A stretch of 64,000 bases of DNA, taken from positions 150,246 to 214,245 of the forward strand of contig JAEZQY010000067.1 of the NCBI GenBank assembly GCA_023441055.1, read 5' to 3'. The DNA is from Bacillota bacterium. GTDB lineage: Bacteria > Bacillota > Bacilli > Paenibacillales > UBA4045. Positions 16,396 to 55,680 of the stretch are shown here, piece after piece. How positions within the stretch are numbered: position 1 is the first letter of the stretch; the number at the start of each line of letters is the position of its first letter. The translations under genes were made by a program, and so were the position numbers. The notes beneath the pieces were generated by a model. The model had not been told where the DNA came from, searched no databases, and saw only the letters and a list, made by a program, of their open reading frames with translations.

Positions 16396-16459
16396 AGCAA
16401 ATCAGAATATAATCTGACTGCTGCCGTGTCCTTTTCCGCGAAGGATTTCGTTGGCGAGC

Positions 16460-16630
16460 GCTTATAGGCAGGTTTCCTGGCTTACGGGTTGCCGAGCTCC
16501 TCTCCTTCCCATTCCGCGCGCAGAACAGTGGTATTGCGAGGATCTCCCCGATTCACAGTGGCGGGACCGCGCCGGCATCGCACCGGCTTCCCTTTTAACC
16601 TTGTTAGCTAGACAAGGCACCTATCGGCTT
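16460..16630 (-). promoter_or_regulatory. Cobalamin (B12) riboswitch controlling the BtuFCD-like operon
   Basis: The minus strand reads ...ATAGGTGCC...AAAAGGGAAGCCGGTG...GCGCGGTCCCGCCACTGTGA...AGCCAGGAAACCTGCC. The B12 box is at 16467-16482. Confidence 0.85.
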
Positions 16631-16683
16631 CAAGTTCAATTGATCAAGCTAAATCTCTATCTAGTAGTATAGCTGATCTTGCC

Positions 16684-19074: not shown

Positions 19075-19144
19075 ATTCGTCATCAAGCGATGGCTAATCG
19101 TCTAACACCTCCCTATCTCCCGTAGGTACTTGCAGTGCTGTCGG

Positions 19145-19325
19145 AACAGGCAGGTCTCCTGGCTCATGGATCATCATCTCCAGCTGCCTTCCCGGGGGCA
19201 ATCGCACCCAGTGGCGTTAAGCTGAAAACTCTCCATTTTACAGTGGCGGGACCGCGACGGATTTACACCGTGCTTCCCTATTAAGCTGATCCGCAGACTT
19301 GTCCGCAGATGAGCACCTATTCCCA
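19145..19325 (-). promoter_or_regulatory. Cobalamin (B12) riboswitch upstream of metE
   Basis: The minus strand reads AATAGGTGCTC...GGGAAGCACGGTG...CGCGGTCCCGCCACTGTAA...AGCCAGGAGACCTGCC. The B12 box is at 19149-19164. Confidence 0.85.
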
Positions 19326-19562
19326 ATATTCAGTTATTGCTTGCTGCAAATCTAGTACAGCATAATCCTAACCGATGCACTCGGATTTATCAAGTCGTGA
19401 ATTGTATTGAAATGTCAGTTCTATATGGTAATATTAGTTCAATGAAATACAGGAATGGCGAAGCACGCCTCTGAGTCCGATTGCGGATTGCGGGGGCGTG
19501 TTTTATTTTGTCGGGAGGAGTGGAGGTAGGTCACGAGTTATGAAGTCGAGCATACTAAATGG

Positions 19563-44455: not shown

Positions 44456-45987
44456 TTAATTCGGGGGGGAGAGGATTGGAGAGATTGTAATTAATCTTAA
44501 TCTTTCCATCCTCGAATACTTCGATTGTTTGGATAAGCCTTTGGAGGAATTGCTTCTATACCTGTTCATCGCTAATGTCGAGGTCAATAAAGCGTTCAAC
44601 TTCCTTCTTAAAGGCTTCATTGCGTTCCGCGAGGTTATTTCCTTCATCTAAGGCTACAATTAGTTCTGCCTTCTTATTCAGATATTCTTGTTGTTGGTGG
44701 GCGTTACGCTCGTTCTGATGCTTGAACTGGTCTGAATTGATTGTCCCGTCAACATGTAAAGTCAGTAGCTTATCAAATCGAATATCGAGTTCTCTTAGTT
44801 GCTTCTCTACACGTTAAGTTCTCTTTGAACTTGAGACTGAACAGCCAAGGATTTTTCTTCTGCAATTCCGTAAAGAGTATCGATCTTCACAGTATCCTTT
44901 ATCAAGGCTTTCAGGTCATCTTTGACAACCTGTAATAGGACCTTTTCCTCAATGATGTGAGAAGAGCAATATGAGGAATTTTCACATAGCCGCCGCATAC
45001 ATATGCACCTTTCCGTCTATCCGGTTTAAAGTGCATACCGCTTCCACAGTCAGGGCATTTAAGGATATAAGAGAATAAGCTTTCATTGCCATTGCTCTTG
45101 TGTTTGCCTCTCTTTTTCATTTGTTCTTGAGCGGCAATAAAGTCATCCTCTGTTATAAGAGCAGGATGTGAGTTCTCAATGACAACTTGTTCTTCTTTAT
45201 TGATCTTACGTCTAATCTTGTAAGTCTCAGATGCGGCCAATAAACTCGTTGTTTCTTCTTGATGAAATACTTGTTTACCCGTATAGACTGAATTAGACAA
45301 GATACCTTTAATCGTGTTTTGATGCCATTTCTCCCCTGCGTTTGCCGCCCCTGAATGTGTTCTCGGTGTAGGAACACCTCTGCGCATAAGGAGATTACTA
45401 ATGTTAAACATACCCATACCGTCATACAAATAAAGCCTGAAAACCTCCTTTATGATGGGGGTGGCTGTCTCGTCAACTTCCAACTTTTTAGAAATGGGAT
45501 TGGTACGGTACCCGTAAGGAGGTACAGATACAATTCGGTTTCCTTGAGTTGCACTAGACTTAAGCCCCCATTTAATCTTGTTGGAGAGGCTTAAGTTATC
45601 CTCTTCAGCTAACACCGCTTTTAGATTAAACATCAATCTGCTCTTGCTTGTTTGGGTATCGTAGCCATCCTCAGGAAAAATAAGCCTTATATTATTTCTT
45701 TCCAAAGTGTCAGCAGTATTAAGGCTATTAACAGTATTTCTACCTAACCGTGAAACGGACTTTGCGATGACAACATCAAACTTCTTCTTTTTAGCATCAT
45801 CCATTAATCGCAAAATCTCAGCTCGATTCTTAATACCTGAACCACTTATTCCGTTGTCAATGTACCGTTCAATTACTGTAAAGCCCTGTTCCAAAGCAAT
45901 GCTTTCCGCTAAGGCAACTTGATTCTGAAAGCTGTTCCTCTGTTCATCTCTCTTCGTGCTTACTCTAGCATAGATAGCATACTTCAT
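44456..45987 (-). pseudogene. Large serine recombinase, disrupted by at least one frameshift and two stops
   Basis: The N-terminal resolvase domain is intact (YARVSTKRDEQ..., catalytic Ser), as are the recombinase domain and Zn ribbon (CPDCGSGMHF...YVCGGY). The reading frame then jumps near 44975 to the frame giving SSHIIEEKVLLQVVKDDL. It is stopped at 44807 and again by the TAG at 44567-44569. The remaining C-terminus (...LIQTIEVFEDGKIKINYN) lies in the same frame beyond that TAG. Confidence 0.8.
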
Positions 45988-46139
45988 TGTTTTGTCACTC
46001 CTTCCATGTGTGAAGGAATGACATTTGCTCTATCATCATCGTTCTTTTTGGCTTCAATAGTGTCAATCTGATGGTTTAGTAGTGAGGATAAAATTTCCTC
46101 TAAGGATGTTGTACCTTCGAATGTGCGTTCAACTTTCAT
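45984..46139 (-). CDS. Small hypothetical protein translationally coupled to the recombinase gene
   Basis: The ATG at 46139 is preceded by GGGGG. MKVERTFEGTTSLEEILSSLLNHQIDTIEA...; the stop overlaps the recombinase ATG (ATGA). No recognised domain. Confidence 0.4.
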   Translation of the reverse strand: MKVERTFEGTTSLEEILSSLLNHQIDTIEAKKNDDDRANVIPSHMEGVTKQ

Positions 46140-46757
46140 TGTTGATTCCCCCTCTCGGGCTAACAATCGCGCTATGGTGGGGAAACGTTGCGACACATTT
46201 TTATTCCTTTGAGGGTGGCGGAGAAGATAGTCTTAACCGATTCAGCCACATATTTATTTGAAATTTATCCGTTATGGTTTATCTATTGAGATTTAATTGA
46301 ATTGCTTTGCATCCTTTGATTTCCCACCCCTTCGGGGTGGGGTACGTCTTCATGTGGTCGCTCCGCTCGGGGGCTCCGCCTTGATTTTTTAGATTATTTA
46401 TTTCATGGAAACACAGGTGGGTAAGGAAACATAATTCCCCTTAGGGGAATAAGAAACACATGTGGGTTTAGGTTTCCTACATGACATCAAGCGTGCTCAG
46501 GTACGGCTTTACCACGCGCATGATAAACATGCTCTGTCATGAATCCCTCGCTTTAGGCCACCGTGACGGGGCTACAAATAATTGTAATATCTGAGGATGA
46601 AGCACAACTTCAAATCAAATACCTGTCCATTTAACGGGGCAACACCTACTTGTGAACGCAGGGGCGGTTATTTTAGGTGTGCTACCGCAAAGCCACGGGC
46701 AAAGCATTTTATGAGTTTGTAATAATCATCGTTATTAGTTTTTGAATTGTTGCGACA

Positions 46758-47741: not shown

Positions 47742-48093
47742 GATCTAGTCCAAGAGAGCGCGGAACGCTATAGTATAAATGTAGAAAAATATCGTGAAAT
47801 ACTGAACCTTATTAACTCAGAAAAAACTGATGTAAAGGTGAAAGGACTTTTGTCATTAGCTTATAATGCTGATGATGGGGAGTTTGCTCAGGACTTAATG
47901 GTTCGATATAGTCAGCATTTAAACGAAACATCAGAGGGATAGCTATTCTATGTATTGGGCATATCGCAAGAATACATCGGAAAATTAACAAGCAGCTAGT
48001 TATGCCTATTATTACAGATGGTCTTAATGACAAAAGTCAGTTTGTTAGAGGACATTCACAATCAGCACTGGATGATATCAACATGTTCTGCTA
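47742..48093 (+). pseudogene. Start-less, frameshifted HEAT-repeat-like remnant
   Basis: Two consecutive frames read ...LSLAYNADDGEFAQDLMVRYSQHL...* and then IAILCIGHIARIH...ITDGLNDKSQFVRGHSQSALDDI. There is no start codon. Confidence 0.3.
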
Positions 48094-48138
48094 ATATGCG
48101 AATATTCCTGGTCTAAAGGCTAAGTAATCTTAAATACC

Positions 48139-49518
48139 ATGTGGGTGGTGACTTTTTTGAAACCAAAGAAATATTTAGATCAATTAAAGAAAGTTAATAC
48201 ACTTCCTAACTTAGTCAAAGCTATTAAATCAATATTTGAAAACTTCGAAGATAACAATTATATTCCGGCAATTATAGAAGAGGGGAACTTCACCCTAGAG
48301 CAGGGAGAAGATTTGTACTTAAAATTAGTTTTAAAACATCAGTCAATAAAACTAGAAAAAACTTGGTTAAAGGATAACATGGCATTTGGACTAGAAGAGC
48401 CTACAGATTATAAGGATAACTTAAACAATAGTGCGTTTGCTCATAATGTTATTACCCAAAGAAAATACAAATCGCGTAATTTGTATCAACTTAATCCATT
48501 ATTGATTTCGGATGAGATCAATGAGTATGAATATTCCAATTCGAACTATGTAAATGCATATTTGAACGATGAGTATTCAAATTTAAAGGGTTTACCAGTA
48601 TTGAAATCAACAAATGATCTTAAATTAATGGTATTGAAAAAGGTTTTTAATAACTTTATTCATGATCCCGAAAGTAATATTTACCCGAAATTTGAGTTAG
48701 TAGCTGAATTTGAATATCGAACACATAATAATAGCATTAAACATATTAAACCAAATGATTATCAATCGCCGGACTCGTTACTAAGAGTTGATATAAATAA
48801 GAGTGCAGTATTAATTCTTGGTAGTATCATACTCCCACCTTTTGAAAGCAAAAAACAAGAAACTAAAAGAAATATTCAGGTACTTGATTTAAATGATCTA
48901 AAGCCGCGGTCACATAACTCAAGTCATTATAACGGCGATACTATTGAAGGGTTCGTTTGCTTTAAACCTGAAGTAATAAACATTCTTAAAGGCTATTACT
49001 ATTTTTATGATTTGCAAATGGTCGATAAAAATAATATTGAGAACACTTATTTAGTCGATGTGCTTGGTGACAAAGTTGTCTTTTGGGAAGCTGAGTATAA
49101 TAAGTTGCCCGATTTCATAAAGGATCAAATAGATACTTATAACTTTGTTCCTATAGATAAAAAGGGAGTAATAAGTCAGGCAATGTCTGCAATGCAACTT
49201 GAAGTAGATTGGAATTGGGATAAGAAACTAACTCCCGAATACATCCTAGCAAACTTAATTAGAGAGAGATCATTCAAAAGGGCAATAGATATGGGATTAA
49301 CATTTATTGAGCCTAAAACCGAAGCTGAGTTAAGGGACTTTATATTAAAAGTTGAATCTTTAACAAGTGTTAGGTTAGAGAGGTTTAATCCCAACTCTGT
49401 TGATGTAAAACAGTTAATTATTATTCGCGATGGTGATAATTTCGAGGAATCGACAAACGATTTAAAGATTCTCTATCAAAAGTATTGTTATGCAATACAG
49501 ATGGAGTATAAAAAATGA
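48139..49518 (+). CDS. Orphan 459-aa protein, no recognisable domain; partner of the downstream ATPase-Toprim gene
   Basis: Long intact ORF in very AT-rich DNA with N/K/E/Y-rich composition. Its stop overlaps the next ATG (ATGA at 49515-49518). The start could instead be the TTG at 48157, behind GGTGGTG. Confidence 0.75.
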   Translation: MWVVTFLKPKKYLDQLKKVNTLPNLVKAIKSIFENFEDNNYIPAIIEEGNFTLEQGEDLYLKLVLKHQSIKLEKTWLKDNMAFGLEEPTDYKDNLNNSAFAHNVITQRKYKSRNLYQLNPLLISDEINEYEYSNSNYVNAYLNDEYSNLKGLPVLKSTNDLKLMVLKKVFNNFIHDPESNIYPKFELVAEFEYRTHNNSIKHIKPNDYQSPDSLLRVDINKSAVLILGSIILPPFESKKQETKRNIQVLDLNDLKPRSHNSSHYNGDTIEGFVCFKPEVINILKGYYYFYDLQMVDKNNIENTYLVDVLGDKVVFWEAEYNKLPDFIKDQIDTYNFVPIDKKGVISQAMSAMQLEVDWNWDKKLTPEYILANLIRERSFKRAIDMGLTFIEPKTEAELRDFILKVESLTSVRLERFNPNSVDVKQLIIIRDGDNFEESTNDLKILYQKYCYAIQMEYKK

Positions 49519-50768
49519 CTTATATTAATGATTTTACAACACCTATAAAGTTTCTAGTTGGTATGAATGGTTCGGGTAAAAGTTATGCATTAAACGAAGC
49601 ATTAAAAGAACAAGAACGATGGGCTGTTCTAATTACAGAGGACGGAATGCCTATAATACCAAGACATATGAATCAGGTTTCAATAAATTTAGACAGCATG
49701 TCATATAATTATTTAGATGAGGGTTCCCGTGGTCAGTTAGGGAGAGGAACTGAGGAAGAAAATATATCAGAAAGAGCTCTAAGGGTCATATTATTCTGTA
49801 ACGAAATCACAAGAAAGTTGAACTTATTCAAAACAAAGTCTAAAGGGCAAGAAAAGCTTTACAACATGATGTCAATCTTCACAAGTTATAATTTGAATAA
49901 TGTTAGAGTAATTTATTTCGATGAACCGGAGAACTTCTTAGATGAAGAGTTTTTAAAGGTTATTGCAGAATTTTTTGATGTGCTGATTAATAGTGGATAT
50001 ATAGTAAGGGTCGCTACTCATAATTCTCGATTACTCAATATTTTAAAGGTTAACTTAGAGGATGTAATCTTCTTTCATACCCATTCACAGTTTCTTGTGT
50101 CGGAGGATGAAATAAAGGAACTGTTTCAAAACTCATCCTATCAAATAGAGCGCATTAGAGAACAGCAGAGAATTCAAACTGATGCTTCTATACAATACAA
50201 ACTAGATTTATTAAATCATGAGCAAGCTTTTTGTAGCTTTATTGAACAAAATTTAAAAGGTGAAGAGTTTTATAGGTGCTTATTTTATAAAAAGATTATT
50301 ATTGTTGAGGGGATTTCTGATATTGTTGCTTTGGCGTCTATGAAAAATGACTTTGATAGCTCAATTGAAATATATAATCCGAATGGAAAAGCATTCATCC
50401 CCTATTTTGTAGAATTATTTCTAAAACTAAGAAAAGAAGTTGTTGTTATTATTGATGGTGATCTTCCTGTTCAAGGAGAAGATACCCCTTTAAAGCATGC
50501 AGTCGCGGTCACTCATCTTCTGAAGGAATATGAGGCTAGAAATGAAATTAAGCTAGTAATACACACTCCCGATTTGGAAGGATTCTACAATATTGATCTT
50601 GAACATACTGGTGATTTATTAGGGATGTCCAACACAGTGAGAAGGAATAATAAGGGGTGGCTTAAATTCTTAGCCGCATTTATTTTTTTCAGCGAAGAAG
50701 TAAATAAAGAACGACTGAGGGGACATGTATTAGGAAGAGCAGATGAAAATCAATTCGAATTTCAGTAA
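49515..50768 (+). CDS. Compact OLD-family-like protein: ABC-type ATPase fused to a Toprim nuclease domain (417 aa)
   Basis: ATPase motifs: Walker A GMNGSGKS (aa 16-23), signature-like SKGQEKL (aa 108-114), Walker B VIYFDEPE (aa 132-139), H-loop ATHN (aa 167-170). Toprim motifs: Glu in IIIVEGISD (aa 261-269), DxD in VVVIIDGDLP (aa 309-318), TPDLEGF (aa 351-357). Confidence 0.8.
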   Translation: MTYINDFTTPIKFLVGMNGSGKSYALNEALKEQERWAVLITEDGMPIIPRHMNQVSINLDSMSYNYLDEGSRGQLGRGTEEENISERALRVILFCNEITRKLNLFKTKSKGQEKLYNMMSIFTSYNLNNVRVIYFDEPENFLDEEFLKVIAEFFDVLINSGYIVRVATHNSRLLNILKVNLEDVIFFHTHSQFLVSEDEIKELFQNSSYQIERIREQQRIQTDASIQYKLDLLNHEQAFCSFIEQNLKGEEFYRCLFYKKIIIVEGISDIVALASMKNDFDSSIEIYNPNGKAFIPYFVELFLKLRKEVVVIIDGDLPVQGEDTPLKHAVAVTHLLKEYEARNEIKLVIHTPDLEGFYNIDLEHTGDLLGMSNTVRRNNKGWLKFLAAFIFFSEEVNKERLRGHVLGRADENQFEFQ

Positions 50769-50840
50769 TGAGACCCTCGCGATAAATAGAATGGAGATGC
50801 GACTCTTTCGAATCGCCCTTCCTAATTTGAGAGCAAATGT

Positions 50841-50925
50841 CATTCCTTTGTTTCGAGTTGTACTCCCTGTCACCTCTTCACATGTGGAGTGTGTGGTAAG
50901 GATGTCACGGGTGGAGAAGTGAGTG
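50841..50925 (+). other. Displaced RumA/RlmD-type 3' coding tail (attR-side scar)
   Basis: The frame reads ...SSHVECVVRMSRVEK*. This matches the conserved RumA C-terminus pattern (E. coli RumA ends ...FPHTGHLESMVLFSRVK, from memory). The tail starts exactly at the GTGGAG core. Sequence left of the core is unrelated to rlmD. Confidence 0.55.
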
Positions 50926-51214: not shown

Positions 51215-52681
51215 GTGAAATTAAATATAGACATTACGAATATAAAATCGATAACATCTTTGAAGTTGGAATTACCTATTAATAAAGGTCTTTATGCGAT
51301 CACGGGTGAAAATGCCACAGGGAAAAGCACCTTAACAATGTGTGCTGCATTGTTATTTTATCGCTTCGATGTGAATCAATACTTCGGGAGATTAACTAAT
51401 GATAGCAAAATAAATTTTGAGCTCAGTGAGCAACAACAGTCCATAACCTTTAATGATGGTTCTGTTAATAAGAGTGGCAACATTAATATTAAAGGTTTTT
51501 ATGAAGGAAGCTTAATTTTCGGAAATAGATTCCGGAATACAACATATACTGCGCTTGGTAAATTAGATAGAATTATTGACGATGATATTGAGCCTGCTGA
51601 TAACTTTATACGAGAAAATTTAGGCTTAATATTAAGAAATGATAAACACTATTATAAAGATCTTTTTAAGCTAAAGACTGGCTTACAAAACAAATATAAA
51701 CTTGGAGGAACTCCATTTTTCTATATGAGAAATGGACGAAGAATTAACCAAGCTCATATGTCCACTGGTGAAAACTTAATGTTGAGTATCCTCCATTCTC
51801 TGAAATTACGCATTGATGATCGAGGAGATATTAATATTCCATGTGTAATTTTTCTTGATGAAATTGAACTAGCATTACACTCATCCTCCCTTAGAAGGCT
51901 GGTCAAATTATTAAGCGAGATTGCCGCTCAATTTAATTTTGCTATATATTTTTCTACGCATTCAATTGAACTTATCAGAGATATAAAACCCGAAAGAATA
52001 TTTTATGTTCAGAAATACATTAATAATTCAATTGATGTATTAAATCCTTGCTATCCGGCTTTTGCGACCAAAAATTTATATGATGGTAATATGGGCTACG
52101 ACACTGTTATATTGGTTGAAGACGACTTAGCTCGTTCAATAATTCTGAACTTACTGAAAAACCATAATTTATTGAATAACAAACTGGTATCAGTATTGCC
52201 CTGTGGGGGATGGCAAAATGTACTCCGGATGTCTCAAGACATACTCCAAAGCAATCTATTGGGTGATAAATCTAAAATTGTTGTTATATTAGACGGGGAC
52301 GTACAAAATAGTGTACCTGCCTTTCTGGAGGCAAATAATATTTCTCGGAGCATAGTTTTAAACTTCTTGCCAATATCTAGTTTGGAGAAGTACTTAAAAA
52401 ATAATCTTTATGATAATGTTAATCAACAATTATCTCAAGAACTTGATAACTATGTTTTTCATAAAGTAGGTCTTCGCACCATTTTACAAACTTATAAAAA
52501 TAATGGTCCTTATAGAAAAGATGATGCAAACGGAAAAGAGTTGTTTGATGATTTAGAACACGAATTAATTTCAAATGGAAAGAATAGGGATGACCTAATA
52601 GAAATTATTATTCGCTATATTAGTAACAATGATTCTATTCGACTCGAAAAAATAGTCTCTTTTCTCAATTCAAAAATATAA
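51215..52681 (+). CDS. Stand-alone ABC-type ATPase fused to a DUF4435/Toprim-like domain (488 aa), OLD/PARIS-like architecture
   Basis: GTG start behind AAGGAGGG. ATPase motifs: Walker A GENATGKST (aa 31-39), signature MSTGENL (aa 182-188), Walker B VIFLDEIE (aa 211-218), H-loop STHS (aa 247-250). Toprim-like motifs: Glu in ILVEDD (aa 299-304), GGW (aa 331-333), DxD in VVILDGDV (aa 356-363), PISSLEKYL (aa 386-394). Confidence 0.8.
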   Translation: MKLNIDITNIKSITSLKLELPINKGLYAITGENATGKSTLTMCAALLFYRFDVNQYFGRLTNDSKINFELSEQQQSITFNDGSVNKSGNINIKGFYEGSLIFGNRFRNTTYTALGKLDRIIDDDIEPADNFIRENLGLILRNDKHYYKDLFKLKTGLQNKYKLGGTPFFYMRNGRRINQAHMSTGENLMLSILHSLKLRIDDRGDINIPCVIFLDEIELALHSSSLRRLVKLLSEIAAQFNFAIYFSTHSIELIRDIKPERIFYVQKYINNSIDVLNPCYPAFATKNLYDGNMGYDTVILVEDDLARSIILNLLKNHNLLNNKLVSVLPCGGWQNVLRMSQDILQSNLLGDKSKIVVILDGDVQNSVPAFLEANNISRSIVLNFLPISSLEKYLKNNLYDNVNQQLSQELDNYVFHKVGLRTILQTYKNNGPYRKDDANGKELFDDLEHELISNGKNRDDLIEIIIRYISNNDSIRLEKIVSFLNSKI

Positions 52682-52809: not shown

Positions 52810-53049
52810 TTATCCTTCCACATCCACCGTCACGCCTGAGTTGAACTCCACCGCAAATTTGTCCGCAAAGACCGTGACCTTCACAATCAGCCGCCTGACC
52901 AGTTGCACGTTGTACTCGGTGATGGTGATGGGCTGCTCCCGTAGGAATGCGCTCATATCAGCGATTCGTTTGAGCAGCTCATCCCGGCCTACATTTTCCA
53001 CCATGACCTTCTGCTTTTTTGCTGATAATAATGCCATCGGAAATAGCAA
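52810..53049 (-). pseudogene. C-terminal fragment of a second large serine recombinase (DUF4368-like tail)
   Basis: ...ITEYNVQLVRRLIVKVTVFADKFAVEFNSGVTVDVEG matches the conserved tail of TndX/TnpX-type recombinases. No catalytic domain lies upstream. Its G+C content is higher than its surroundings. Confidence 0.55.
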
Positions 53050-53111: not shown

Positions 53112-54518
53112 TTAATCAGCAATGTTTGACCAAGCTCTGCTTAACAATTGCACACCTAGTTCCATCTCTTGTATGCTGATCCCTCCAAAGCCTAAATAAA
53201 CCTTTGAAGTTCCAGTGGTTGAAGTAACTTCAGTATCTTGACTACCATAGACCAGGACACCATTATTTCGAGCTAAAGTGATTAATTGCTCCGTGTCATA
53301 ACGACTTTTAATCGATAATTCGATATGTAAACCGGTTTTGCTGCCTTCGACATGAACATAGTTTGGCATATATCTGTGCAACATTTGGACTAAAGCTTGA
53401 TGTTTATAACGATATACTTTTCTAATTCGCCTTAAATGGCGGTACCAATGACCACGAGCAATAAATAACTCCATAGCCCATTGATCTATCCGAGAGGGTG
53501 GGGATAACATGTGATCCAATGTAAGCAATTTCTCCAACAAAGGTATAGGTAATATCATATAGTTCATCCTTAAAGCAGGTGTAAATACCTTTGAGAACGT
53601 TCCGATATAAATAACAACACCGTTGTGGTCCAGGCTTTGGAGTGAAGGAATCGGCTTACCGTAAAGACGCAGTTCTCCATCATAATCATCTTCAATCAGA
53701 TAACCTTCATTCTGCTGTGCCCATTGAAGCACCCGTAGTCTAAGAGGGTATGGCAATGGATCCCCCGAGGGACGATGTGAAGGTGTTACATATAGGCTGC
53801 GAATATTACTATCTTCAAGTTCTTGATCCAATAAGTTGATATCATTCATTGCTATTGGAATGAGATTAAATTTGTTTTGTTTAAAGATTTTTCTGACTTG
53901 AGCAATCCCAGATTTCTCAATACCTATATTGTGATCCTCCAATAATCTGAAGAGTAATTGAATACTATACGAGATACCAGTTCCAATCAGAATCTGGTCG
54001 GGCGAGCAGACTACTCCTCTAGATTTCTGTAAGTATTCAGTTAAGCTTTCCCGTAATCCATACTCTCCACGAGGATCTCCATAATGATGGATATATTGAT
54101 TATGAAGTGATATAGCCTCTGAAACGATTGACTTCCAAGTACGGATAGGAAAGATTTCTCCATCCACAGCTAAGAGATTGAAGTCAATATAGTTTTTCTC
54201 GTATGATCCGGTTAATGCCTTAAAATTCTGATCCGATGCCTGATTCAATATGGACGATGGATCGGGAGGTTTTATAACTGTGGGATTAATGACAATTAAC
54301 CCCACTCTCTCTTTGCTGCGTACATAACCTTCTTCCAGTAACATATGATAAGCAGTCTCAACAGTAGTTTTACTGATACTTAATTGTTGCATCAATGAAC
54401 GTATTGACGGGAGTTTAGTTCCGTCTTTAATGACACCATTCTGGATAAGAGACCGAATATGTATATATAATTGCCTATATAACGGTTCACCACCAATAAA
54501 GGAGACTGCTAGTTCCAT
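53112..54518 (-). CDS. MocR/PdxR-type regulator (GntR wHTH fused to an aminotransferase-fold domain)
   Basis: N-terminal LPSIRSLMQQLSISKTTVETAYHMLLEEGYV and a C-terminal fold-type I domain with TFSK (PLP Lys). Confidence 0.9.
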   Translation of the reverse strand: MELAVSFIGGEPLYRQLYIHIRSLIQNGVIKDGTKLPSIRSLMQQLSISKTTVETAYHMLLEEGYVRSKERVGLIVINPTVIKPPDPSSILNQASDQNFKALTGSYEKNYIDFNLLAVDGEIFPIRTWKSIVSEAISLHNQYIHHYGDPRGEYGLRESLTEYLQKSRGVVCSPDQILIGTGISYSIQLLFRLLEDHNIGIEKSGIAQVRKIFKQNKFNLIPIAMNDINLLDQELEDSNIRSLYVTPSHRPSGDPLPYPLRLRVLQWAQQNEGYLIEDDYDGELRLYGKPIPSLQSLDHNGVVIYIGTFSKVFTPALRMNYMILPIPLLEKLLTLDHMLSPPSRIDQWAMELFIARGHWYRHLRRIRKVYRYKHQALVQMLHRYMPNYVHVEGSKTGLHIELSIKSRYDTEQLITLARNNGVLVYGSQDTEVTSTTGTSKVYLGFGGISIQEMELGVQLLSRAWSNIAD

Positions 54519-54633
54519 ATTCCTTCTCCCAACTGACCTCTAAAAATAATTCATAACTGATACTTATTATCGGGTCATTCTCAGTATAAACTTTGGTTAC
54601 GGTTTCAACAAATGATAACTGGGGTGACTGCTT

Positions 54634-55680
54634 ATGAAGATGGCTTTTATTTTTTTTGACAATATGACAATGCTGGACTTTGCAGGCTTTCATAATGCGA
54701 TTACATGGTTAAAAAAGCGGAATATACTTGAGGACTTATCTTGGGACTTTTGCGGAAATAAAGAAGAAGTAACAGATGATCGGGGAATGATCATCAGAAT
54801 GAATCGTGTTATGCCTAATTTAGGTGAATATGACTTACTATTTGTTCCTGGAGGTCAAGCGACGAGACAGCTCATTCACGACCAAGAATTCGTTCGTTGG
54901 ATTCAGACAGCACAAGATGTTAAATATAAGGTTTCGGTATGTACGGGAGCACTTATATTGGGTGCCGCGGGATTTACAAAGGATAAGATCATAACAACGA
55001 ATCCGCTTGCCTTGGCTGAATTAATACCTTACTGCAAAGAAGTGGTCAAAGTTCGAGCAATTCGTGATGGTGACTTATTTACTGGAGGCGGAATAACTGC
55101 TTCGGTCGATCTAGGTTTGTATTTTATCGAGACAATTACAGACCAAGAAACAGCTGTCGAAATTCAAAAGCTTATGGATTATCCATACTATAGACCTCAA
55201 TCCTTAGATCTGAAAGAGTCAGCAGATTCTATTGAAAGTCGATTGCATAATTTAGGTATAACATTGCCAGAGGCAAGCGATCCAGCGGCTAGATATGCAA
55301 ATTGTGTGCAAGTTAATAATCTATTATTTGTTTCAGGAAAAGGACCTTCAAAAAGTCCAAGTGGTAGACTTGGACAGGAGTTTAATGTATATGAAGGTTA
55401 TCAATTTGCCCGAGATGTTGGAATTGAAATATTATCTGTTATAAGATCTACTCTCGGGTCTCTCGAAAAAGTTAAAAGAGTTGTGAAAATTCAAGGGTTT
55501 GTTAATGCAGTCCCTGATTTTGAAGAACATCATAAAGTATTGAATGGATGCTCAGAATTAATGTTAGATGTGTTCGGTGCTAAGGGTGAACACGCTCGGT
55601 CAGTATTTGGCGCTGTATCGTTAAGGGATAACCTTCCAGTAATTATTGATTCCATCTTTGAAGTTGACACATTACGCTAA
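54634..55680 (+). CDS. Fusion protein: DJ-1/PfpI-family domain + RidA/YjgF-family domain
   Basis: The N-terminal half has the nucleophile elbow VSVCTGALILGAAG. The C-terminal half is RidA-like (VNNLLFVSGKGP ... VKIQGFVN ... RSVFGAVSL). Confidence 0.8.
   Translation: MKMAFIFFDNMTMLDFAGFHNAITWLKKRNILEDLSWDFCGNKEEVTDDRGMIIRMNRVMPNLGEYDLLFVPGGQATRQLIHDQEFVRWIQTAQDVKYKVSVCTGALILGAAGFTKDKIITTNPLALAELIPYCKEVVKVRAIRDGDLFTGGGITASVDLGLYFIETITDQETAVEIQKLMDYPYYRPQSLDLKESADSIESRLHNLGITLPEASDPAARYANCVQVNNLLFVSGKGPSKSPSGRLGQEFNVYEGYQFARDVGIEILSVIRSTLGSLEKVKRVVKIQGFVNAVPDFEEHHKVLNGCSELMLDVFGAKGEHARSVFGAVSLRDNLPVIIDSIFEVDTLR

Follow-up and report, generated by a model that had tools for sequence, protein, structure and literature searches.

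Results and Discussion

The A–B gene pair and its translational coupling

Two adjacent genes, here termed A and B, lie on the forward strand of a 64,000-nt stretch of contig JAEZQY010000067.1 (assembly GCA_023441055.1) from a Bacillota bacterium of the Paenibacillales lineage UBA4045. This whole stretch is referred to as the window, and coordinates are positions within it unless another locus is named (Table 1). Gene B encodes an ATPase-Toprim protein of the OLD type and gene A a partner protein without recognized domain or fold; comparative genomics lends good support to the view that the two represent a candidate two-gene defense module. A preliminary description of this DNA, made from the sequence alone, had reported two intact open reading frames (ORFs) in AT-rich DNA that are joined by an ATGA stop/start overlap, and this was borne out: the frames are open over 48139–49518 and 49515–50768 (plus strand), they share the ATGA at 49515–49518 (an overlap of 4 nt), and the GC content of the pair is 0.31–0.32, within a segment of 0.31–0.42 (~45–56 kb) and versus ~0.50–0.58 in the flanks and the genome. 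Since the local base composition predicts one stop codon in about 12 codons, stop-free runs of 459 and 417 codons would arise by chance with probabilities of only 2e-18 and 7e-17, respectively.

The same description had assigned 459 aa to protein A, counted from 48139. The long frame stood, but the start codon did not: the ATG at 48139 lacks conservation in relatives, whereas a GG(T/C)GGTGA motif is kept 5' of the A start in two loci of other genomes (L001 and L002), and the database gene call for A comprises 453 aa. Based on the conserved ribosome-binding site, translation of A most likely initiates at the TTG codon at 48157, yielding a protein of 453 aa (459 aa with the upstream ATG as start). 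Within the 3' end of A, a GGAG sequence (49503–49506) provides the ribosome-binding site for B, the junction motif ATGGAGTATAA(A/C)AAATGA is kept in L001–L005, and in 18 of 18 other loci with both genes complete A and B overlap by 1–38 nt or abut directly. Promoter consensus matches were no commoner than in shuffled sequence, such that no transcription signals can be claimed, and the interval between B and the next ORF (ORF C, see below) contains no terminator-like site.

Conservation, mobility and selection

The preliminary description had regarded A as an orphan. This view had to be abandoned, as homologues of A fall into 53 clusters (at 90% identity) in Bacillota, and an exhaustive search with the A profile recovered 93 representatives in 1.84 billion proteins. 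Members occur in Paenibacillus, Brevibacillus, Peribacillus, the B. cereus group (including a conjugative plasmid), Salinicoccus, Salipaludibacillus and metagenome-assembled genomes (MAGs) of Clostridia; every named member is annotated as 'hypothetical protein'. The pair had, on the other hand, been described as obligate-looking, and inspection of gene neighborhoods agrees with this: a homologue of A is located directly 5' of a B-type gene in 15 of 15 other distinct loci, and each of the 10 genome loci that the A profile retrieved has a B homologue directly 3' of A, at B identities from 90% down to 37%. The linkage is also found in the B. cereus group and on a B. mycoides plasmid, and it is kept in three very distant members that share 28% identity with A or are recognized by the profile only (E-values of 4e-39 and 1e-18). 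The two families are of near-equal size (53 clusters for A, 47 for B) and cover the same taxa, and the A and B proteins of a genome diverge in parallel from their window counterparts (correlation of identities, r = 0.98). The pair is conserved and apparently obligate.

At the DNA level, the resemblance to related genomes sets in no more than ~110–130 nt 5' of A and stops at the stop codon of B. In blastn comparisons, the locus L001 aligned over 48030–50771 and L002–L005 aligned from 48144/48168 to 50718–50768, while the flanks of the pair differed in every genome (L001–L010). This confinement of DNA similarity to the pair indicates that A–B is a 2.7-kb cassette that has been moved between unrelated contexts. 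A was not found in 50,697 phage records and was present on one of 72,556 plasmids, a conjugative plasmid on which the copy lies among insertion sequence elements. With ratios of nonsynonymous to synonymous substitution rates (dN/dS) of 0.15 for A and 0.08 for B relative to the closest relative, both genes are, as judged from these sequence comparisons, under purifying selection. Continued selection had been proposed before, on the grounds that A and B are the only intact large ORFs in an otherwise broken element; the dN/dS values support the proposal directly, but the argument from broken neighbors is weak, since the island holds further intact large ORFs, namely ORF C and the two genes listed beyond it in Table 1.

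It had also been suggested to look for an enrichment of homologues among defense genes, and recognized defense genes are indeed recurrent neighbors of A–B in many genomes. A complete PARIS pair is located directly 5' of A–B in L009, a GmrSD type IV restriction enzyme directly 3' in L007, a caspase-domain protein 5' in L001 and an AbiL-like pair 3' in L015; type III CRISPR, PARG and McrBC genes surround A–B in L025. The B. cereus group has the pair beside mutS-mutL, flanked by genes for a STAND NTPase and an AAA_15/21 ATPase.

Protein B: an ATPase-Toprim protein of compact size

Protein B (417 aa) consists of an ABC ATPase (residues ~1–195), a helical linker, an OLD-type Toprim domain (~256–360) and a C-terminal helical region. 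Pfam family PF20469 (OLD-like_TOPRIM) matched with 33.5 bits, above its cut-off of 23.2, while the matches to AAA_21 and SMC_N remained under their cut-offs. The complete set of ABC-ATPase motifs and the Toprim triad noted earlier proved to be invariant in an alignment of 35 homologues: this applies to Walker A (G16/N18/G19/G21/K22), the signature-like residues S109/G111/Q112, Walker B (D136/E137), the H-loop histidine H169 and, in the Toprim domain, E265-G266, D314/D316 and E355, with D353 conserved to at least 90%. The AlphaFold model of B (predicted local distance difference test score, pLDDT, 89.4; predicted template modeling score, pTM, 0.87) found its top Foldseek match in the PDB in 6p74, the full-length Thermus scotoductus OLD protein (TsOLD), at an E-value of 3.7e-8 and with an alignment across the whole protein; GajA chains (8jqb_A, 8sm3_A, 8tk0_A) matched at ~1e-4. 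The remaining matches listed were ABC-type ATPase domains, confined to the N-terminal part, or complete ABC transporters whose match runs through such domains. TM-scores of B with solved OLD proteins amount to only ~0.4, which could reflect a different domain arrangement together with an absent insertion.

The latter feature had been anticipated, as the ATPase module had been described as small and devoid of a long helical insertion. Walker A and signature motif are separated by ~90 residues that form four short strands and a single helix (86–102) in the model, indicating that B lacks the helical dimerization insertion that previously studied OLD proteins have in their ATPase. In line with this assignment, the B profile aligns in its ATPase part over the whole length of transporter-type ABC domains (ArtP, FtsE), and in its Toprim part to TsOLD. 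With the Pfam match above the cut-off and TsOLD as best fold match, the former label of a miniature OLD-type ATPase-Toprim protein appears well chosen: motifs, Toprim type and predicted fold all place B in the OLD family, as a compact member.

Protein A: a partner without recognized fold

Protein A has no match in Pfam, PADLOC (none at E ≤ 0.1) or NCBIfam, a Pfam scan of 38 members of its family revealed no recurrent family, and the family profile found no relative in the PDB. The protein is acidic (pI 5.6), is predicted to be soluble, and contains neither a transmembrane segment (maximum Kyte-Doolittle score over 19 residues, 1.57) nor a P-loop; in all these respects the preliminary description, which had seen no P-loop, transmembrane segment or assignable domain, was accurate. 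A structure search had been proposed there as well. It yielded a confident model (pLDDT 87.8) that retrieved nothing from the PDB or BFVD with Foldseek at E ≤ 1e-3; weak resemblances to RseB, the sliding clamp and lipoate ligase were taken as noise (TM-scores of at most 0.2, probabilities of at most 0.3), and an internal duplication was dismissed at hhalign probabilities below 1%. The pTM of 0.59 suggests that A has flexible domains.

The model is beta-rich up to about residue 316 and continues as a helical bundle. We distinguish a beta-rich N-terminal half (~1–238) from a C-terminal module (~239–459) that combines a beta region, harboring the invariant D307 and the near-invariant E317, with the helical bundle. 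Residues E192, R194, D267, D307, E317, E319 and K322 are among those invariant in the family alignment. The N-terminal half is at least as conserved as the C-terminal one and includes the motifs YIPAIIEEG, LYQLNPLL and AEFEYR.

A short form of A encoded next to giant STAND proteins

Many proteins of ~220 aa match the A profile only at positions 237–451, corresponding to the C-terminal module. In the joint alignment of long and short forms, D307 is invariant and V248, G271, E317 and S346 are nearly so. The short-form gene overlaps the start of a large gene in every locus read, and the giant partner proteins, where complete or nearly so, comprise 1266–1496 aa and constitute one family (30–57% identity along their length). 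They show no homology to B beyond the P-loop and no docking region shared with it. The two giants that were scanned contain a STAND-type NTPase (NPHP3_N or AAA_22) with weak Avs1b matches, followed by long C-terminal regions, and the giant of L017 carries a Cap4-type nuclease domain at its N-terminus. The short-form and giant genes come from gut metagenomes and from a MAG of the Erysipelotrichaceae, where they often reside on elements resembling integrative and conjugative elements (ICE-like) with ArdA and a serine recombinase. In one locus a SIR2 gene precedes the pair; a 446-aa gene found 5' of some short forms was discarded as a third component, as its product is related neither to SIR2 nor to the N-terminal half of A.

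A profile of the C-terminal module detected the long A and short-form architectures only, with no further relatives or fusions. The module is shared between two systems, in which it occurs in the same geometry and is coupled to two unrelated NTPase partners, B with its Toprim domain on the one hand and the STAND giants, at least one of them with a Cap4-type nuclease, on the other. The short form and its giant are a second, uncharacterized two-gene system.

Comparison with named systems and OLD classes

OLD ATPase-Toprim proteins act in phage defense alone or with partners (PMC10568477, PMC12796447, PMC12445682, PMC11464382), and their classes are set by gene context: stand-alone genes (class 1), a GajB helicase partner (class 2), a retron reverse transcriptase plus non-coding RNA (class 3), a split into AriA and AriB as in PARIS (class 4) and archaeal Cran1 with a membrane protein (class 5) (PMC10568477, PMC12796447). 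The phylogeny of PMC12796447 additionally contains 11 uncharacterized OLD clades. A search by accession found no mention of the A or B family in any paper of the searched library, and B-family accessions are absent from the supplements of PMC12796447. In PADLOC-DB v2.0.0, a comparison suggested in the preliminary description, the pair matches no named system: A has no match and B has weak generic ATPase or Toprim ones, the best being Old (5.9e-8 over 140 residues). A–B shows the features of the OLD family in motifs, Toprim type and fold, but its gene context is that of none of the five classes, and it lacks the ATPase insertion.

Among the five, class 1 (P2 Old, TsOLD, Vibrio cholerae OLD) provides the best structural match of B (TsOLD), which is also the protein to which its Toprim domain aligns by profile; yet a class 1 gene has no conserved partner whereas gene B invariably follows A, and B, with 417 aa versus 528 for the TsOLD chain, is smaller and devoid of the helical dimerization domain of the ATPase. 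P2 Old (586 aa) is larger than B as well. Gabija resembles A–B in consisting of two genes, in combining an OLD-family ATPase-Toprim protein with an obligate partner, in being common in Bacillus and in the fold match of GajA at ~1e-4. However, A is no UvrD-like helicase and has no P-loop, no helicase adjoins B in any locus, the Toprim domain of B is without the helical insertion seen in class 2, and the GajA models of PADLOC reach only 7e-6 on B. Gene order differs too: the partner gene lies 5' of the OLD gene here, whereas the Gabija helicase follows immediately 3' according to PMC7049728.

PARIS likewise joins an ABC ATPase and a Toprim nuclease in a two-gene system and, with one protein that scaffolds and restrains the nuclease until triggered, is the nearest analogy for a gating of B by A. 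In PARIS, however, ATPase and Toprim (DUF4435) reside on separate proteins, whereas B unites them in one chain, and A has no match to AriA or AriB; that a true PARIS pair adjoins A–B in L009 further marks the two as distinct. With retron I-B (class 3, for example Retron-Eco8), A–B has in common an ATPase-Toprim effector in need of partner components, but neither a reverse transcriptase nor a non-coding RNA adjoins A–B, and the corresponding model matches ORF C rather than B. Cran1 is archaeal (Sulfolobales), vertically inherited and encoded in an operon with a membrane protein, in contrast to A–B, which is bacterial, patchy and island-borne, with A lacking transmembrane segments. Finally, Avs (AVAST) systems resemble not A–B but the short-form giants, which combine a STAND NTPase with a long C-terminal region and, in L017, a Cap4-type nuclease; the Avs1b matches of the giants are weak, though (E ~1e-8 over the NTPase), and the giants come with a 220-aa upstream partner that typical single-gene Avs proteins do not need. 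Judged against PADLOC v2.0.0, the description that suits A–B best is that of a putative OLD-based defense system in a new gene context, with a partner of novel fold.

A model for A–B function and its alternatives

We favor the interpretation, at a probability of roughly 0.55, that A and B constitute a self-contained two-gene conflict cassette, most likely directed against phages, that moves between defense islands of Bacillota and in which B executes and A gates. B would be the executing enzyme, its ABC ATPase probably forming ATP-dependent head-to-tail dimers that control the two-metal Toprim nuclease; consistent with this notion, the ABC domain retains the signature motif needed for ATP-sandwich dimers and the Toprim domain its two-metal site. 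The nuclease substrate might be DNA, in analogy to GajA, TsOLD and V. cholerae OLD, which nick or degrade DNA, or tRNA, which is cut by P2 Old and PARIS AriB (PMC10568477, PMC12392090, PMC12445682, PMC11464382). A might supply the dimerization and sensing functions that a B protein devoid of insertion and sensor domain would need. Its C-terminal module would attach to the NTPase-nuclease as a gate on the activity, its beta-rich N-terminal half would serve infection sensing or specificity, and translational coupling would set the A:B ratio. The assignment of the gate to the C-terminal and of the sensor to the N-terminal part follows from the lack of a sensor domain in B and from the long C-terminal regions of the giants, which could themselves sense. 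We thus infer a physical interaction of A and B, a division of labor within A, the kind of substrate and an anti-phage phenotype.

Several considerations weigh against this interpretation. The role ascribed to A derives entirely from gene architecture. Conservation of its N-terminal half is atypical for fast-evolving phage sensors and could instead reflect an enzyme or a structural interface, and the invariant acidic residues D267, D307, E317 and E319 could be catalytic. Archaeal Cran1, which makes up one OLD class, is non-defensive (PMC12796447), so that OLD membership alone is no proof of defense. Moreover, the L003 copy looks degraded, with a frameshifted B and a shortened annotated A product, and the L001 copy of A has CTG at the start position, albeit without an internal stop; this indicates that A–B is dispensable, which would fit defense or any other accessory function.

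Part of these findings could also be accommodated by models that distribute the roles of A and B differently. A might be an antitoxin-like inhibitor, a kind of safety catch whose loss or titration frees B to kill the cell, in the sense of an addiction or abortive-infection module without direct sensing; phage-induced host shut-off or loss of the mobile element would deplete A and release B. The position of A upstream of, and translationally coupled to, a nuclease gene conforms to the usual antitoxin-then-toxin order, A is acidic, the cassette travels as cargo of islands, a plasmid and ICE-like elements, and the C-terminal module also precedes an unrelated NTPase-nuclease with a long C-terminal region of its own, implying that the module need not sense. 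Nevertheless, we consider such an inhibitor unlikely: unlike small labile antitoxins, A (453 aa) is as large as B and conserved along its whole length, Pfam scans disclosed no recognizable DNA-binding domain for autoregulation, and the 240-aa N-terminal half would be left without a role. The reverse distribution of tasks, with B sensing nucleic acid and recruiting or activating A as an enzymatic effector, would make A a new hydrolase or nuclease fold with E192, R194, D267, D307, E317, E319 and K322 as active site. It would account for the invariant charged residues, of which D307 is strictly and E317 almost strictly kept in the short forms as well, and the ABC ATPase has been described as the sensor in OLD-type systems in a recent report (10.64898/2026.07.10.737580). 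We regard this arrangement as improbable, however, as B keeps the complete invariant set of Toprim metal-binding residues and is predicted to be nuclease-competent, a second effector would be redundant in at least one short-form system whose giant has its own Cap4 nuclease, and searches of the PDB and BFVD with the A model retrieved no known hydrolase fold.

A role outside defense, in mobile-element biology or DNA metabolism, for instance as a RecF/RecR-like recombination or repair accessory or as a helper of island transfer, might be suspected from the location of the window pair beside a serine recombinase and within a perfect 19-nt inverted repeat, from the mutS-mutL genes that adjoin it in the B. 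cereus group, and from the example of Cran1, an OLD protein without a defensive role (PMC12796447). Yet the recombinase linkage is not conserved (two of the 10 genome loci, L003 and L005, encode homologues of the window recombinase), the distribution is patchy and rare with the 93 representatives mentioned above, the flanks vary in every genome with recognized defense genes recurring as neighbors, and neither RecO nor any other repair protein in the PDB resembles A in fold. Such a role appears very improbable to us.

Returning to the gated conflict cassette, a wider and decidedly tentative proposal, which we would advance with less than even odds, is that A–B represents a sixth, bacterial OLD context class with an undescribed partner fold, the C-terminal module of which acts as a portable gate or adaptor on two unrelated NTPase-nuclease effectors. 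The effector would be a compact OLD protein in genomes of the Bacillales type, and mobile elements of gut Bacillota would pair the module with Avs-like STAND proteins, at least one of which has a Cap4-type nuclease. If true, this would add a new shared regulatory component to bacterial immunity; the module common to the OLD pair and the STAND giants points to a reusable control module across immune systems. Bacterial immunity makes repeated use of OLD nucleases (P2 Old, Gabija, retrons, PARIS), which are classified by their partners, and the control of the nuclease by the ATPase is still under study. To these, A–B adds a minimal OLD enzyme without the dimerization insertion and putatively dependent on a partner of novel fold, and it could reveal what a partner contributes. 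At only 2.7 kb, and derived from relatives of Bacillus and Paenibacillus, the cassette is a small and tractable system.

Further features of the window and of related loci

ORF C begins 450 nt 3' of B and is an intact ATPase-Toprim gene; its product scores 5.7e-39 with the retron I-B effector model of PADLOC and exceeds the Pfam cut-offs for AAA_21 and AAA_15. As a third component of A–B it was rejected, being neither co-conserved with the pair nor a close paralogue of B. A retron context was rejected likewise: there is no reverse transcriptase in the window, no YxDD motif in window open frames of at least 120 aa, and no retron RNA in the Rfam scan. ORF C may be a solitary OLD-like defense gene or the remnant of a retron. 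Low-GC DNA with two intact genes continues past these defense genes, showing that the island is larger and less decayed than first described; from their sequence, these two genes are read as a putative GntR/MocR-type regulator (468 aa, minus strand) and a putative DJ-1/PfpI-RidA-like fusion (348 aa, plus strand).

Table 1. Positions of the gene pair, of neighboring features and of related genes in other loci.
Feature	Locus	Position	Strand	Basis or remark
Gene A	window	48157–49518	+	ORF; conservation of start codon and ribosome-binding site; homologues
Gene B	window	49515–50768	+	ORF; Pfam; invariant catalytic residues; model
Ribosome-binding site of A, GGGTGGTGA	window	48143–48151	+	sequence reading; 5 nt 5' of TTG start
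Coupling junction	window	49503–49518	+	GGAG site for B and ATGA overlap
Conserved mobile unit	window	48030–50771		blastn of island against L001–L010
ORF C	window	51215–52681	+	488 aa, ATPase-Toprim
Truncated large serine recombinase	window	44911–45987	−	358 aa; Resolvase, Recombinase and zinc-ribbon domains; beside rlmD
Inverted repeat, AAGGAATGACATTTGCTCT	window	46013–46031 and 50830–50848		19 nt, perfect
EGFOA RNA (RF02955)	window	46479–46600	−	63.1 bits, gathering score 37.7
Short ORF beyond ORF C	window	52810–53049	−	putative recombinase C-terminal fragment by sequence reading; no Pfam match
Low-GC DNA	window	53112–55680		two intact genes
Intact gene	window	53112–54518		in low-GC DNA
Intact gene	window	54634–55680		in low-GC DNA
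Cobalamin riboswitch	window	16450–16637	−	114 bits
Cobalamin riboswitch	window	19132–19335	−	112 bits
SEC-C protein gene	L002	7417–9858		~810 aa, directly 5' of A
SEC-C protein gene	L004	7549–9978		~810 aa, directly 5' of A
Short form and giant	L017	2206–7316		
Short form and giant	L018	3640–8497		
Short form and giant	L021	8001–12889		
Short form and giant	L026	10001–15143		

The inverted repeat brackets the EGFOA RNA, a CPCC gene fragment, A and B, and none of 100 shuffles gave two matches. The truncated serine recombinase gene has the left arm just 5' of its ribosome-binding site; the right arm recurs, together with ~100 nt around it, 3' of B in L001. The repeat could be a recombinase site or could mark the ends of an invertible or mobile segment. 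In L001 and L003, A–B is located 3' of rlmD too, which suggests a shared insertion hotspot.

The EGFOA RNA lies 1.5 kb 5' of A. Its function is not known, and the formation of trimers and dimers has recently been demonstrated for this RNA (bioRxiv 10.64898/2026.07.01.735769); as a part of the A–B system it was dismissed since it was not found in seven other A–B loci. The protein of ~810 aa encoded directly 5' of A in L002 and L004, in which only a C-terminal SEC-C motif is recognized, occurs in these two loci and not in the window. Its gene is separated from A by a 26-nt gap in L004, and it could be an unrelated defense gene or an optional third component. The two cobalamin riboswitches belong to the host part of the window.

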